Part shown: positions 40,513 to 53,307 of the stretch, in pieces
Position numbering within the stretch: position 1 is the stretch's first letter
How the letters are laid out: every line of letters starts with the position of its first letter
NCBI RefSeq assembly: GCF_013315695.1
Contig: NZ_CP054353.1
DNA: 64,000 bases
Strand: one strand, 5' to 3'
Origin: Escherichia coli
Lineage (GTDB): Bacteria; Pseudomonadota; Gammaproteobacteria; Enterobacterales; Enterobacteriaceae
Made by a program: the position numbers and the translations under genes
Notes under the pieces: model-generated
The model's input: the letters and a program-made list of their open reading frames with translations, nothing else
Databases searched by the model: none
What the model was told of the DNA's origin: nothing

Positions 40513-40542
40513 GTAAAGCGGTTAACAGGCGGCAAAACTTTA
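40513..40542 (-). promoter_or_regulatory. Candidate sigma-28 (LafS)-type promoter upstream of lfgM-lfgN
   Basis: Minus strand TAAAGTTT-N14-CGCTTTAC; -35 element is a perfect match to the FliA TAAAGTTT consensus; 37 nt upstream of lfgM ATG. Confidence 0.45.
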
Positions 40543-40556
40543 ATCGCCTGCGCAAA

Positions 40557-41294
40557 TTACTCCGCGCTTACCGTCGTCACCACGCCGCTTTCTGCCACCC
40601 TCGCGCTAATGACCCGCTGGCTGCTGGCGTTACGCACTTTCACCATCTCGCCCTTACGACCATTTTTCAGCGCCACGCCGGGCATCGAGGCGCTGAGCCC
40701 CGCGCTCTGGTAAACAATCATCACCGGTTGATCGCGCTCGACCAGCACCGGAGATATCAGTTCTTCTTTGGTGATTGGCCTGCCCGGTTGCAGCGCGTGT
40801 TTACTGCTGAAACCAATCGCGTCATTGGGTTCCATCAACACCTCCCGGTGCTGGGCACTGACGTTGTAAGGCTTCAACTCCACATCATTCGCCGTGAGCG
40901 GCGTATCGCGGGCAACCAGTGACTTTGCCATCACCACCGGCACCAGAACATCCGGGCGTACCGCGACGTTCATCTGCCAGCTTTGCGGGCAACTGACGGT
41001 GAAGTTCATCCGGTTGAGGGCGATTTCCGCAGGCGAAGTCAGCGTGACGCCGGGGGCCGTAGCGCAGGGCGTGGCGGTCGCAATCTGCGAGGGAATGTAG
41101 ACCTTAAAGGTGTAGCGATAGTCATGCCACTGCCGTTGTTGCGCCAGCGATTCAATCTGCTGGCTCGCGGCATTCAGCACCTGGGCGTTGACTTGTTCCC
41201 GCGCGCTGTGTTGCACGGGGTGGACGGCGGCGTAGCCCGGTAAGGTCAGCGCCAGGAGGAAATAAAACTTCCGCCTGCAAAATTGAAAACTCAT
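40557..41294 (-). CDS. lfgA: Flag-2 P-ring assembly chaperone, FlgA homologue
   Basis: ATG 41294 (MSFQFCRRKFYFLLALTLPGYAA...) with signal peptide; SD AAGGG. Confidence 0.83.
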   Translation of the reverse strand: MSFQFCRRKFYFLLALTLPGYAAVHPVQHSAREQVNAQVLNAASQQIESLAQQRQWHDYRYTFKVYIPSQIATATPCATAPGVTLTSPAEIALNRMNFTVSCPQSWQMNVAVRPDVLVPVVMAKSLVARDTPLTANDVELKPYNVSAQHREVLMEPNDAIGFSSKHALQPGRPITKEELISPVLVERDQPVMIVYQSAGLSASMPGVALKNGRKGEMVKVRNASSQRVISARVAESGVVTTVSAE

Positions 41295-41323
41295 AAACCC
41301 TTTCTCATCAGTCACTTAAAAAA

Positions 41324-41339
41324 TGGCACGGCAATTGCT
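41324..41339 (+). promoter_or_regulatory. Sigma-54 promoter upstream of lfgB operon
   Basis: TGGCACG-gcaa-TTGCT, exact match to -24/-12 consensus TGGCACG-N4-TTGCW; 37 nt upstream of lfgB ATG. Confidence 0.75.
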
Positions 41340-41375
41340 TAGCGTATGCGGATTGAAGCAGGAGTGACGCAGAGA

Positions 41376-41711
41376 ATGGGGATCAGTTTTCAACAAGCAT
41401 TGGGAGTGCATCCGCAGGCAGTGAAGTTACGTCTTGAGAGGACCGAGCTACTGACTGCGAATCTGGCGAACGTCGATACGCCAAATTTCAAGGCTAAAGA
41501 TATTGATTTTGCCAGGGAGATGCAACGGGCAAATAACGCGGCGGTGGATGTCCAGTACCGCGTGCCGATGCAGCCGTCAGAAGATGGCAACACCGTGGAA
41601 CTGAACAGCGAACAGGCACGGTTTTCACAAAATAGTATGGATTATCAAAGCTGTCTGACCTTTCTGAATCTGCAAATCAGCGGCATCAGAGAGGCCATTG
41701 AAGGGAAATAA
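41376..41711 (+). CDS. lfgB: Flag-2 proximal rod protein, FlgB homologue
   Basis: ATG 41376 preceded by SD AGGAG; conserved rod N-terminal motif. Confidence 0.88.
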   Translation: MGISFQQALGVHPQAVKLRLERTELLTANLANVDTPNFKAKDIDFAREMQRANNAAVDVQYRVPMQPSEDGNTVELNSEQARFSQNSMDYQSCLTFLNLQISGIREAIEGK

Positions 41712-41713
41712 GC

Positions 41714-50724: not shown

Positions 50725-50740
50725 CTCTTTCAGGAACAGT

Positions 50741-51718
50741 ATGCAGGTCGGACTTACATCTTCATCACTCGCCACCGGCGGCGCGCATAGCGCTGCGGTA
50801 TCGTCGTCAACCGTTGCGCCCACTCAGGCGGTGCGGCAAACGCTCCCGGCGACGGCGAGTGAATATCCGGCCTCGCCGCTGATTACCACTCGCCCGCAGC
50901 GTTACAGCGTACAGCTTAACGACCAGCTCACCACGTTGCAGCAGGCGGATCACTATCTCGGGCAACTGGAGCAGCAGTTGCTCGATTATCGTCATAGCCA
51001 GCGTAAAGGCGGGCAGGCGCAGAGTTCGGCGCTGATGCAGATGCTGGACAAACGCGCCGCACTTTCCGGCGGCGCGGTGGACCGCCAGTTACAACCAGTG
51101 TTGCAGGGGGAAGCGCGGGTGACTTTTCACTCGCCGGATCTGACGAATCTGGTACACAATCCCACGCCGGGAACGCGCATGTTCAGTGTCACTGGCGGGC
51201 GGCAGACCCAGCTTTCGGCGGTGATGCTGTCTGAGGATGACAGCGCCGCGCAGTATCAGACGCGGCTGACCAACGCTCTGCGCCGCGTGGGTGTGCAACT
51301 GCATCAGCAAGCGGACGGCATCAGCTTCTCCACCACTGAAAAACAGTGGCCCCATATCGAGCGCACCTTAAGCGTGCGCACCGATGGCGATAAGTCGGCG
51401 TTTATGCCGCTGAAAACCTTTGCCGAACCGTCACAGGCGGACCGCTTAGCGCAAAGCCTGCAACAAGGCGGGGCGGGAATTTCTCAAATGCTGGAAAACA
51501 TTAATCAGCAGCGCGCGCAAATGGCGGTGCAGCAGGAAAAAGCGCGGCAGTTGATCGACGGCATGTCCCGCTTCCCGCAAACGGAAAGCGCCGTGCAGGC
51601 GTCGGAAAATCTCGGCGGCGTGCTGGATAGCGCCAATCATAACTATCAAGTTTTATTGCAGGCGGTGAACGGTCAGGCACGGATTTCCAGCCAGACGGTG
51701 AGGAGTTTATTGGGGTAG
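50741..51718 (+). CDS. lafW: Flag-2-specific protein of unknown function (position of lafW)
   Basis: 325 aa, Ser/Thr/Gln-rich, no recognisable motif; symbol assigned from gene order in Flag-2 from memory. Confidence 0.55.
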   Translation: MQVGLTSSSLATGGAHSAAVSSSTVAPTQAVRQTLPATASEYPASPLITTRPQRYSVQLNDQLTTLQQADHYLGQLEQQLLDYRHSQRKGGQAQSSALMQMLDKRAALSGGAVDRQLQPVLQGEARVTFHSPDLTNLVHNPTPGTRMFSVTGGRQTQLSAVMLSEDDSAAQYQTRLTNALRRVGVQLHQQADGISFSTTEKQWPHIERTLSVRTDGDKSAFMPLKTFAEPSQADRLAQSLQQGGAGISQMLENINQQRAQMAVQQEKARQLIDGMSRFPQTESAVQASENLGGVLDSANHNYQVLLQAVNGQARISSQTVRSLLG

Positions 51719-51969
51719 TGTTATTGAAAATCAATCAAATGAGGTTGTCGTAAAAAATCATTTCAGTGCAGAATATGCTGTAACTCTGCGGGTTAAAAAA
51801 GGAATGAAATGGCCACTCTCAAGCAACTGATGGATAAGCAAAGCCCTGAAAGTCGTAGGCGAATAATAAAAAAAGCAGAACGACTCCGCCAAACTGTCAT
51901 TAATAAAAAGCTAGAGTTACCAATAACTAAACCTATCAGCAATTCCGATTGATTTCATTCGGGATTTTC

Positions 51970-52007
51970 GTAGGCCGGATAAGACGCCTTTAGCGTCGCA
52001 TCCGGCA
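51970..52007. repeat. REP element
   Basis: GTAGGCCGGATAAGACGCCTTTAGCGTCGCATCCGGCA. Confidence 0.8.
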
Positions 52008-52021
52008 TATATTGGCACTCA

Positions 52022-52864
52022 TCAGCATTTCTGCACAGTATTTAACAACTTCTCCAAATTCTGATACATCGCGCTATTAATATCGCTGTTCTGCCAACCT
52101 TCCACATTAAAGGTTAATTGCCAGCTGCCGTTGCACTGGTTACGCAGAACAATATCGCTTTCCAGTCGGTTACGAACATATTTATAATAGGTTGTCATTG
52201 TCATATTATGCGCTGACAATAAATTATCGAGTTTGTCTTTTCCTGGTGCGAGGGTTTGTGATAGTAACGGTACGGAATTATTTTCTCCAGCAGAAGTTAA
52301 ATGAAATATTTTTATTCTTGGACTGTTAATTGACTCTTTTACCAGTTGCGGGGCGTCAGGTGTACTTTTCAAGTGTGAATACCCCACGGTCGAGCCAATA
52401 AATATAACAGCCGCGGTCAACGCTAACCCCATCAGTCCTTTATGTTTTTTTCTAACTGGTACAGGCGGTGTTGTCGAAGATATCTCTTCTGACACAGTTT
52501 CCTGTACCTGGTCGGTAATAATCAGCGCTTCCGCAGGCGATAACTCCGGCAAAGACACATACTCTTTATTGCACAAGTAACCTTTCTTCGGAATTGTTTT
52601 AATAATGTTCTGTTGTTTGCCATCATCGTCGATAGCAACGCGCAACGCATGGATCGCCGTCGGCAGGCTGTTACCGCCGACTATGCGGTTCTTCCATACT
52701 TCGGCACATAAATAAGATCGCGATAAAACCACATCGGCATTTTTTGCTAATGTTTCCAGCAAAATAAAATGGTATTCGCCGAGACGACGTGTTTCACCCG
52801 TTTCGCAATGTATTAAGGCATTAAGCGACGGGTCCATCCGCCAGTTGTTGATAATAATACTCAT
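52022..52864 (-). CDS. lafZ: ToxR/CadC-like membrane-anchored transcriptional regulator (N-terminal winged-helix DNA-binding domain, single TM segment, periplasmic domain)
   Basis: N-terminal region matches CadC-type wHTH (WRMDPSLNAL...GE..RL......LLETLAKNADVVLSRSYLCAEVW); TM segment GLMGLALTAAVIFIGSTVGY; start 52864 or 52915 uncertain. Confidence 0.7.
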   Translation of the reverse strand: MSIIINNWRMDPSLNALIHCETGETRRLGEYHFILLETLAKNADVVLSRSYLCAEVWKNRIVGGNSLPTAIHALRVAIDDDGKQQNIIKTIPKKGYLCNKEYVSLPELSPAEALIITDQVQETVSEEISSTTPPVPVRKKHKGLMGLALTAAVIFIGSTVGYSHLKSTPDAPQLVKESINSPRIKIFHLTSAGENNSVPLLSQTLAPGKDKLDNLLSAHNMTMTTYYKYVRNRLESDIVLRNQCNGSWQLTFNVEGWQNSDINSAMYQNLEKLLNTVQKC

Positions 52865-53278
52865 AGTTGAGTTTACCTTAGCAAGGGATAAATGTTTCCT
52901 GATAGTGCTTTGCATAAAGCACAGTCTTATACGTCCCTGAGAAGATGATTTTTCTGCGTGATAATTAATATTTTATGGTAATAGGATTATTCTTAATCAC
53001 TATATGGCGTGGAAATGTAACGAAATGACAGGACAGGTACAATAGCCAAATGTGTACTATTTGCAACGCAATGTAAATTTTGGCATCAGTACATTGAGAA
53101 CAAAACGCGATAATTGATGGCAATCTTAACTATATCAAGCATTTGATAAAGACATATTTTGATACCTGGCCATGTGGCAGATATTGCTAATAATCTTTTT
53201 ATCTGAATTTAAACTCTGCTTTTTTTTAGCTAAAAGTGGCATCGGATAATACGTGGCGAAAAAATTTTAACGGCGATT

Positions 53279-53307
53279 TTAAGTTTGCTCCTGAGGTGTC
53301 GTTTTTA
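53279..53307 (+). promoter_or_regulatory. Candidate sigma-28 (LafS)-type promoter upstream of lafA
   Basis: TTAAGTTT-N13-CGTTTTTA about 44 nt upstream of lafA ATG. Confidence 0.35.

Follow-up and report, generated by a model that had tools for sequence, protein, structure and literature searches.

In Escherichia coli, the Flag-2 locus encodes a second, lateral-type flagellum together with its own sigma-28 paralogue, LafS, which raises the question of which promoters LafS reads and how these are kept apart from the promoters of FliA, the sigma-28 factor of the primary flagellum (Flag-1). We addressed this question in a 64 kb stretch of contig NZ_CP054353.1 (RefSeq assembly GCF_013315695.1), here called the window, which according to the RefSeq annotation contains an intact Flag-2 locus between rayT and dinB. 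An original prediction made from the letters of the window had proposed that a recurrent motif, TWAAGWWT-N13/14-CGYTTTWA, marks LafS promoters upstream of lafA, lfgMN and lfgKL. Our comparative analysis of sequences indicates that the three sites are very likely late (class 3-type) Flag-2 promoters, read by RNA polymerase with the locus-encoded sigma-28 paralogue LafS. All coordinates are positions in the window unless another locus is named.

A direct check of the sequence returned the three sites with exactly the coordinates and letters first noted: TTAAGTTT-N13-CGTTTTTA upstream of lafA (53279-53307, +), TTAAGAAT-N14-CGCTTTTA upstream of lfgK (48344-48373, +) and TAAAGTTT-N14-CGCTTTAC upstream of lfgM (40513-40542, -). 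Only the terminal WA of the proposed motif has to be dropped, because the lfgM site ends in ...TTTAC and thus lies outside ...TTTWA; the core common to all three sites is TWAAGWWT-N13/14-CGYTTT. The sites align better as two 8-mer boxes, TTAAGWWT-N11/12-G(Y)CG(Y)TTT, which gives the following predicted promoters, listed with the annotated genes that matter most for their interpretation:

53279..53305 (+): predicted LafS promoter of lafA; -35 box TTAAGTTT at 53279-53286, N11, -10 box GTCGTTTT at 53298-53305
48344..48371 (+): predicted LafS promoter of lfgK-lfgL(-lafW); -35 box TTAAGAAT at 48344-48351, N12, -10 box GCCGCTTT at 48364-48371
40515..40542 (-): predicted LafS promoter of lfgM-lfgN (anti-sigma factor and chaperone); -35 box TAAAGTTT at 40542-40535, N12, -10 box ACCGCTTT at 40522-40515
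53351..54265 (+): lafA, lateral flagellin gene
40198..40476 (-): lfgM, anti-sigma-28 factor gene downstream of one site, feedback arm of the checkpoint
58098..58817 (+): lafS, gene for a FliA/WhiG-family sigma factor, the presumed reader of the motif

The distance from site to start codon is 72 nt for lafA (start codon at 53351), 60 nt for lfgK (48404) and 66 nt for lfgM (40476, -), the last site being located in the lfgA-lfgM (flgA-flgM) intergenic region. Structures of Pseudomonas aeruginosa sigma-28 number the -10 element as (-15)GCCGATAA(-8) (PMC12784957), and with this numbering the predicted start of lafA is near 53313. Starts are likewise predicted near 48379-48380 for lfgK and near 40507 (-) for lfgM.

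In 100 dinucleotide-preserving shuffles of the window, the motif was matched at neither spacing. Since the motif was written post hoc from these very sites, independent evidence was given more weight. Scored with a position matrix derived from orthologous sites of other genomes (51 distinct sites), the three sites had the three best scores in the window, with 27.7 for lafA, 25.5 for lfgK and 21.4 for lfgM; shuffled sequences contained on average 0.26 matches with a score of at least 16. The three sites are genuine and non-random. The next score in the window (15.4, at 15320-15348) was considered as an extra LafS site and rejected as a chance match, being located inside fadE.

For comparison with other genomes, a one-genome-per-species scan with a Flag-2 FlgK protein alignment yielded 39 loci, in which the genes were mapped by tblastn. 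The Enterobacterales are represented by Escherichia spp., many Citrobacter, Phytobacter, Pseudocitrobacter, Pseudescherichia, Enterobacter, Leminorella and Budvicia, and the more distant loci come from Vibrio aestivus, Vibrio mexicanus, Shewanella, Burkholderia and Caballeronia; additional lateral-type clusters were found through LafS homologues. Conservation in orthologous intergenic regions, on which the original prediction had staked itself, is indeed seen: the motif is kept at a near-constant distance upstream of the lafA, lfgK and lfgM orthologues, and the lafA arrangement was found in all 27 loci that hold a lafA orthologue.

In alignments of the lafA, lfgM and lfgK regions that were made blind to the motif, nothing but the two boxes, the ribosome-binding site and the ATG forms an invariant block, and the spacer sequence between the boxes varies freely. 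Unchanging columns are TT-A..T and G-CG-TT at lafA, T-AAG-TTT and CGCT at lfgM, and TTAAG-A and G-CG at lfgK. The -35 box reads TTAAG or TAAAG throughout, as is typical for sigma-28, and the CG of the -10 box is invariant. It is followed at position -11 by C or T in each of the 37 aligned sequences and then by TT(T). The GCCG segment of sigma-28 promoters (-15 to -12) is completed at positions outside the selecting pattern, with G at -15 in 92% and C or T at -14 in 95% of the 51 distinct sites. The spacer is short, as at sigma-28 promoters, with 12 nucleotides in 44 and 11 nucleotides in seven of these sites. The adenine at -11 and the subsequent TAA of sigma-28 promoters, on the other hand, are not found at Flag-2 sites. 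In distant clusters the motif precedes the flagellin gene, flgM and flgK as well, usually among the top matrix scores of the 20 kb locus:

Shewanella, lafA: TTCAGTTT-N11-GTCGTTTT
Shewanella, flgM: TTTAGTTT-N12-GTCGCTTT
Budvicia, two flagellin genes: TTAATTTT-N12-GTCGTTTA
Vibrio, site in the lateral cluster: TTAAGGAA-N12-GTCGCTTT
Marinobacter, flagellin gene: TTAAGGAT-N12-GACGTTTT
Cellvibrio, flgM and flagellin gene: TTAAGTCC/TTAAGTGG-N12-GTCGCCTT
Photobacterium DA100, flagellin gene: TTAAGGAG-N11-GTCGTTTT
Stutzerimonas stutzeri, flgM: TTAAATAA-N12-GTCGCTTA

Conservation at lafA extends beyond the two boxes. The lafA -35 box is preceded, at a distance of about 10 nt, by an A/T tract, AAAAAATTTTA (53259..53269, +); A19, A20, T26 and T27 are unchanging in 12 aligned Enterobacterales sequences, and the tract, which resembles an UP element, may be one. 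The lafA leader TACAGGGTATCGAAACGAAAACGA (53306-53335, +) is strongly conserved in Escherichia, Citrobacter and Phytobacter. Upstream of the lateral flagellin promoter region two Photobacterium loci carry long repeats, TGCCTAT in about 14 copies and CTCTGC in about 11 (L052, ~4830-4930, and L041, ~4470-4540), which might allow phase-variable flagellin expression.

The late promoters of the Flag-1 system of E. coli K-12, a strain without Flag-2, allow a comparison with FliA sites of the same species:

fliC: TAAAGGTT-N11-GACGATAA
flgM, at -70: TAAAGATT-N11-GCCGATAA
flgK, at -60: TCAAGTCC-N11-GCCGATAA
fliD: TAAACTTT-N11-ACCGATAA

All late Flag-1 promoters examined contain CGATAA, the spacer is N11 in four of four, the -35 boxes read TAAAG, TCAAG or TAAAC, and the LafS matrix gives them scores of 8.2 or less. 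Their placing is nearly that of the Flag-2 sites (flgM at -70 and lfgM at -66; flgK and lfgK both at -60). The promoter layouts of Flag-1 and Flag-2 run parallel, with a systematic difference in the -10 half. This agrees with the original prediction, according to which the -35 half fits the FliA consensus (TAAAGTTT-N11-GCCGATAA), whose -35 box the Flag-2 sites share, while the -10 half deviates from it. The deviation can be located more precisely. The CG of CGYTTT is the CG of GCCG; therefore the -35 box and the GCCG of GCCGATAA are both shared, and the -10 element differs only downstream, with YTTT for ATAA. The further statement that the sites precede exactly the class 3 genes is correct insofar as all three stand before late-type genes, but the counterparts of fliDST and motAB have no such site and belong in E. 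coli to a sigma-54-driven operon.

Sequences that resemble FliA promoters in one half could simply be degenerate FliA promoters, so that the primary factor would drive the Flag-2 late genes and every departure from GCCGATAA would only weaken them. The fit of the -35 box and of the GCCG part to the FliA consensus and the homology of FliA and LafS (~1e-31) speak for this explanation. It is nevertheless unlikely, because Y-T-T-T is conserved instead of scattering around ATAA and because the motif persists where flag-1 is missing. A purine at -11 occurs in 0 of 37 aligned orthologous sites and in none of the distant loci, and TTT rather than TAA is conserved; drift away from the CGATAA optimum would not yield another conserved sequence. 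The base that is replaced, -11A, is moreover the one that FliA flips and reads, and the spacing is mostly 12 nt, compared to 11 nt at FliA promoters. Leminorella grimontii ATCC 33999 has been reported to have no flag-1 locus (PMC6993521) and keeps the motif at lafA, lfgK and lfgM, which argues for LafS rather than FliA as the reader.

How a close relative of FliA could read such a sequence is suggested by the structures of P. aeruginosa sigma-28 (PMC12784957). There the extended -10 G/C is read by R97 and C-13/G-12 by R80, D87 and R90. Of the non-template bases, -11A alone is flipped in sigma-28 open complexes; it is held in the specificity loop by the backbone of D66 and by stacking on Y76 (P. 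aeruginosa numbering), and the template -11 T is flipped onto H100 (PMC12784957). The best solved relatives of LafS are the FliA proteins of E. coli and P. aeruginosa (E ~1e-31; 9.8e-32 for E. coli FliA, 6pmi), and PF04542 and PF04545, for sigma-70 regions 2 and 4, are recorded for close homologues from the LafS search. With FliA as the closest relative and the DNA-reading residues conserved, LafS is a member of the FliA/WhiG family. It keeps the equivalents of E. coli FliA D81, R84 and R91, which read GCCG (LDELRALDWRPR aligned to LDELRSRDWVPR). Its specificity loop is altered and one residue shorter (RRY-GLPDEGFAGYAV versus ERYDALQGTAFTTYAV; the loops read RRYGLPDEGFAGY in LafS and ERYDALQGTAFTTY in FliA), and the residues after R91 differ as well (QLRQKYH versus SVRRNAR). 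The canonical loop [YF]-D-x(5,6)-F-x-T-Y is not found in the LafS clade, which instead has RRY(-/P)G.(P)D..F..[FY]A and lacks the Asp, whereas nearly all of the ~130 other representatives have [YF]D. Among the 150 best family cluster representatives, this loop form, DWRPRQLRQ..H and the region 4.2 Lys are confined to the top-scoring LafS-like clusters. We infer that LafS reads GCCG like FliA and accepts another flipped base.

In many E. coli-like assemblies a joined FliL (PF03748)-LafS protein of ~400 amino acids is found (P0121-P0138). In the window the two genes are separate (57611-58817), with a stop codon at 58076-58078. The joining could reflect loss of the stop codon in some strains or an effect of gene calling; if real, LafS would be altered there.

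The place of LafS in the regulation of the locus depends on what drives the remaining operons, which are arranged as follows:

to 28663 (-): lfhAB-lfiRQPNM
29051-35521 (+): lafK (sigma-54 activator)-lfiEFGHIJ
36065-39629 (-): glycosyltransferase gene and a hypothetical gene
39757-41294 (-): lfgN, lfgM, lfgA
41376-47983 (+): lfgBCDEFGHIJ
48404-51718 (+): lfgK, lfgL, lafW
52022-52864 (-): lafZ (winged-helix regulator)
54471-60619 (+): lafB(fliD)-C-D-E-F-lafS-lafT-lafU

A search with the sigma-54 pattern TGGCAC-N5-TTGCW, allowing 0-1 mismatch, identified three further promoter candidates:

41324..41339 (+): sigma-54-type promoter TGGCACGGCAATTGCT before lfgB (hook/basal-body operon), exact TGGCAC-N5-TTGCT
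54424..54439 (+): sigma-54-type promoter TGGCACGCCTTTTGCC before lafB(fliD)...lafS-lafT-lafU
39664-39679 (-): sigma-54-type promoter before the hypothetical gene at 38700-39629

The lfgB site is conserved across loci, and TGGCA-N6-TTGC is also found upstream of fliD in Citrobacter, Phytobacter, Marinobacter and Cellvibrio. The three late sites lack the sigma-54 GG-N10-GC core, for which only the sites of lfgB, lafB and the hypothetical gene match, and no sigma-70-like TTGACA-N16-18-TATAAT hexamers overlap them. Since lafS is part of the lafB operon with its sigma-54 promoter, it belongs to the middle class. Just after lafA a strong hairpin, AACAACACCGCC-tgcg-GGCGGTGTTGTT, is followed by the T-run CTTTCT (54310-54344, +) and is probably the lafA terminator; bounded by this hairpin and the predicted promoter, lafA is apparently monocistronic.

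With LafZ and LafK both encoded in the locus and bipartite regulator sites being common, the boxes might also be binding sites for one of these transcription factors and not sigma contacts. We regard this as very unlikely, since the half-sites are neither direct nor inverted repeats of one another, and their sequences and spacing fit the -35 and long -10 elements of sigma-28. They also stand at a fixed short distance from the start codon, in the same places as the FliA promoters of Flag-1. Activators of the LafK type work with sigma-54 promoters, and these stand at other operons; the motif also occurs in clusters in which no LafZ homologue was detected in the locus, for instance in Shewanella and Vibrio.

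A G+C-rich box followed by a T-run, such as GCCGCTTTT, looks like the 3' half of a terminator, so that the sites could be the tails of intrinsic terminators or attenuators of the upstream genes (flgJ, flgA); in some lfgK regions of Citrobacter and Phytobacter, GCGGCG...CGCCGC even flanks the -35 box and the spacer. This explanation is highly improbable. The terminator scan predicted no stem-loop overlapping 40515-40542, 48344-48371 or 53279-53305, the spacers vary without compensatory pairing, and the TTAAG box upstream would be left unexplained. At lafA there is in addition no co-directional upstream gene, because lafZ is divergent. The GCGGCG...CGCCGC sequence itself (L009 and L010, ~9915-9960) is followed by TTTT in some genera and is not present in E. 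coli; it could be a weak hairpin that attenuates read-through from lfgJ. Chance resemblance, or conservation by shared ancestry without function, could be suspected for a motif defined after its sites were seen and followed through many closely related loci, and is hardly credible given that no shuffle matched the motif, that there is no homology among the three E. coli sites and that the motif recurs at 38-50% FlgK identity in intergenic regions that otherwise cannot be aligned; the comparative data effectively refute it.

A search of both strands of the window for the shared core gave a fourth match at 53129..53102 (-), TTAAGATT-N14-CGTTTT:

53102..53129 (-): weak candidate fourth site facing lafZ, TTAAGATT-N12-CGCGTTTT, ~240 nt upstream of the lafZ start

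The matrix gives this match 14.3, no more than the level of chance, it is retained in Escherichia-like loci only and not in Citrobacter or beyond, and it overlaps a sigma-70-like TTGATA-17-AATTAT. As a LafS promoter it is a weak candidate. No LafS-type site was found in the window upstream of lafB(fliD), lafS, lafT(motA), lfgB or lfgL, nor upstream of lafW, lfgN, lafF or the gene at 38700. In Citrobacter, as in E. coli, no such site was found to precede lafB and lafT. In Vibrio, Photobacterium DA100 and Budvicia, a LafS-type site is located 200-360 nt upstream of fliD (L028 16815-16842, L029 15385-15412, L052 6082-6108 and L038 19275-19302, positions in the respective loci). The promoter class of the fliD operon thus seems to vary between lineages.

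Several observations weigh against the assignment of the three sites to LafS or limit its reach. One Photobacterium locus (L041) has no clear site, and its LafS loop differs as well. No site was found at the FlgK relatives of Burkholderia and Caballeronia, and in these loci no lafS was found within 10 kb. The matrix and several of the site lists were chosen with a pattern derived from E. coli, which makes some counts partly circular; the motif-blind alignments of lafA, lfgM and lfgK are free of this circularity. Part of the conservation is inheritance among close relatives, although the divergence of the spacers argues otherwise. The orthogonality of Flag-2 and FliA promoters, finally, is deduced from sequence and from structures of other sigma-28 factors. 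Three metagenomic representatives of the LafS clade were uninformative in either direction, their loci (two short contigs and one locus of 12.7 kb) being without a flagellin gene.

If LafS reads the three sites, recognition could proceed as follows. The G(Y)CG half would be read as duplex by the conserved Arg and Asp residues (D81, R84 and R91 in E. coli FliA), as at FliA promoters. The flipped base at -11 would be a pyrimidine instead of the adenine of GCCGATAA and would be housed by the altered LafS loop, RRY-G.PD..F, in which the near-universal Asp60 is missing. The steps of the circuit can be drawn from the promoter types and the known logic of the Vibrio and Salmonella systems. LafK together with sigma-54 would drive the lfgB operon and the lafB...lafS-lafTU operon, and LfgM, the anti-sigma factor, would hold LafS until the hook-basal body exports LfgM. 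The freed LafS would then fire lafA for flagellin, lfgKL for the hook-filament junction and lfgMN for feedback. Feedback on lfgM is the usual arrangement of sigma-28/FlgM systems. The differences at -11 and at -10 to -8 would keep the late regulons of FliA and LafS apart in one cell.

A broader interpretation, to which we give slightly less than an even chance, is that LafS-type factors form an orthogonal branch of group 3 sigma factors. In this branch the flipped -11 base would have switched from A to a pyrimidine by way of a loop without Asp60, which together with the spacer longer by 1 nt would insulate the FliA/FlgM and LafS/LfgM hierarchies in one cell. The arrangement would be ancient and common to lateral systems across Gammaproteobacteria.

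The 14.5 kb around the sites are 100% identical to E. coli isolate AF3 (NZ_OZ547117.1), and most of this region is present in ~605 of 5,426 complete E. coli genomes. Intergenic regions of the Flag-2 locus contain REP/BIME-like palindromic elements upstream of the lfgK promoter (48200-48330), upstream of lafK (28830-28935) and after lafA (54270-54305), and rayT, a gene for a REP-associated tyrosine transposase (21821-22318), flanks the locus. Elsewhere in the window, an IS1A insertion splits dkgB (4755-6335, annotation), and the start of the window falls inside an rRNA operon.

Altogether, the analysis provides a regulatory map for Flag-2, on which middle promoters of the sigma-54 type, late promoters assigned to LafS and the predicted start sites are placed. 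It describes two sigma-28 paralogues in one cell that would be told apart by a pyrimidine at -11 with TTT where FliA promoters have ATAA, a 12-nt instead of an 11-nt spacer and a changed loop, which bears on the avoidance of cross-talk in dual flagellar systems and on the choice of the flipped base by group 3 sigma factors. The motif can be used to search for members of the LafS regulon outside the locus, and LafS with its promoter is a possible orthogonal sigma-promoter pair for engineering. No promoter sequences for Flag-2 (Enterobacterales) or LafS were found in the literature searched, which lay outside the primary Vibrio and Aeromonas papers, and the word "promoter" is absent from the main comparative study of flag-2. 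The sites would represent a class of sigma-28-type promoters in which the sequence of the melting region is altered, and the novelty of this class relative to the older Vibrio and Aeromonas work is uncertain.

Three known systems invite comparison. Extracytoplasmic function (ECF, group 4) sigma factors flip a pyrimidine into the pocket of their specificity loop, and their promoters with a CGT-type -10 share a CGT/CGC core in the -10 region with the Flag-2 sites. This is an analogy only: the Flag-2 -35 box is TTAAG and not GGAAC-like, the spacer between the 8-mers has 11-12 nt and not 16-17 nt, and the sigma regions of LafS (2, 3 and 4) are those of the FliA/WhiG family. The likeness to the FliA class 3 promoters of E. 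coli and Salmonella goes further, with a TAAAG-type -35 box, a short spacer and a long -10 element starting with G-C/T-C-G, located before flagellin, flgKL and flgMN at near-equal distances from the ATG, in systems paired with an anti-sigma factor of the FlgM type. Flag-2 sites differ by having C or T at -11 in place of the flipped A, TTT in place of TAA at -10 to -8, a spacer of mostly 12 instead of 11 nt and a -35 box that is more often TTAAG than TAAAG; their presumed reader is the paralogue LafS, which is ~35-40% identical to FliA.

The lateral systems of Vibrio parahaemolyticus and Aeromonas hydrophila, in which LafK and sigma-54 serve the middle genes and LafS/FliA-L the late genes, have the same gene order and regulators, with sigma-54 promoters at the middle operons and the motif at the late genes. 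The lateral loci of Vibrio aestivus and V. mexicanus carry the same motif as Flag-2. A difference lies in the lafB(fliD) operon, which has the sigma-54 promoter only in E. coli and Citrobacter, whereas Vibrio, Photobacterium DA100 and Budvicia add the LafS-type fliD site. In its overall layout, Flag-2 agrees with the lateral hierarchy as published, where LafK and sigma-54 come first and the lateral sigma-28 follows later (PMC4481668, PMC3658858, PMC3930126).

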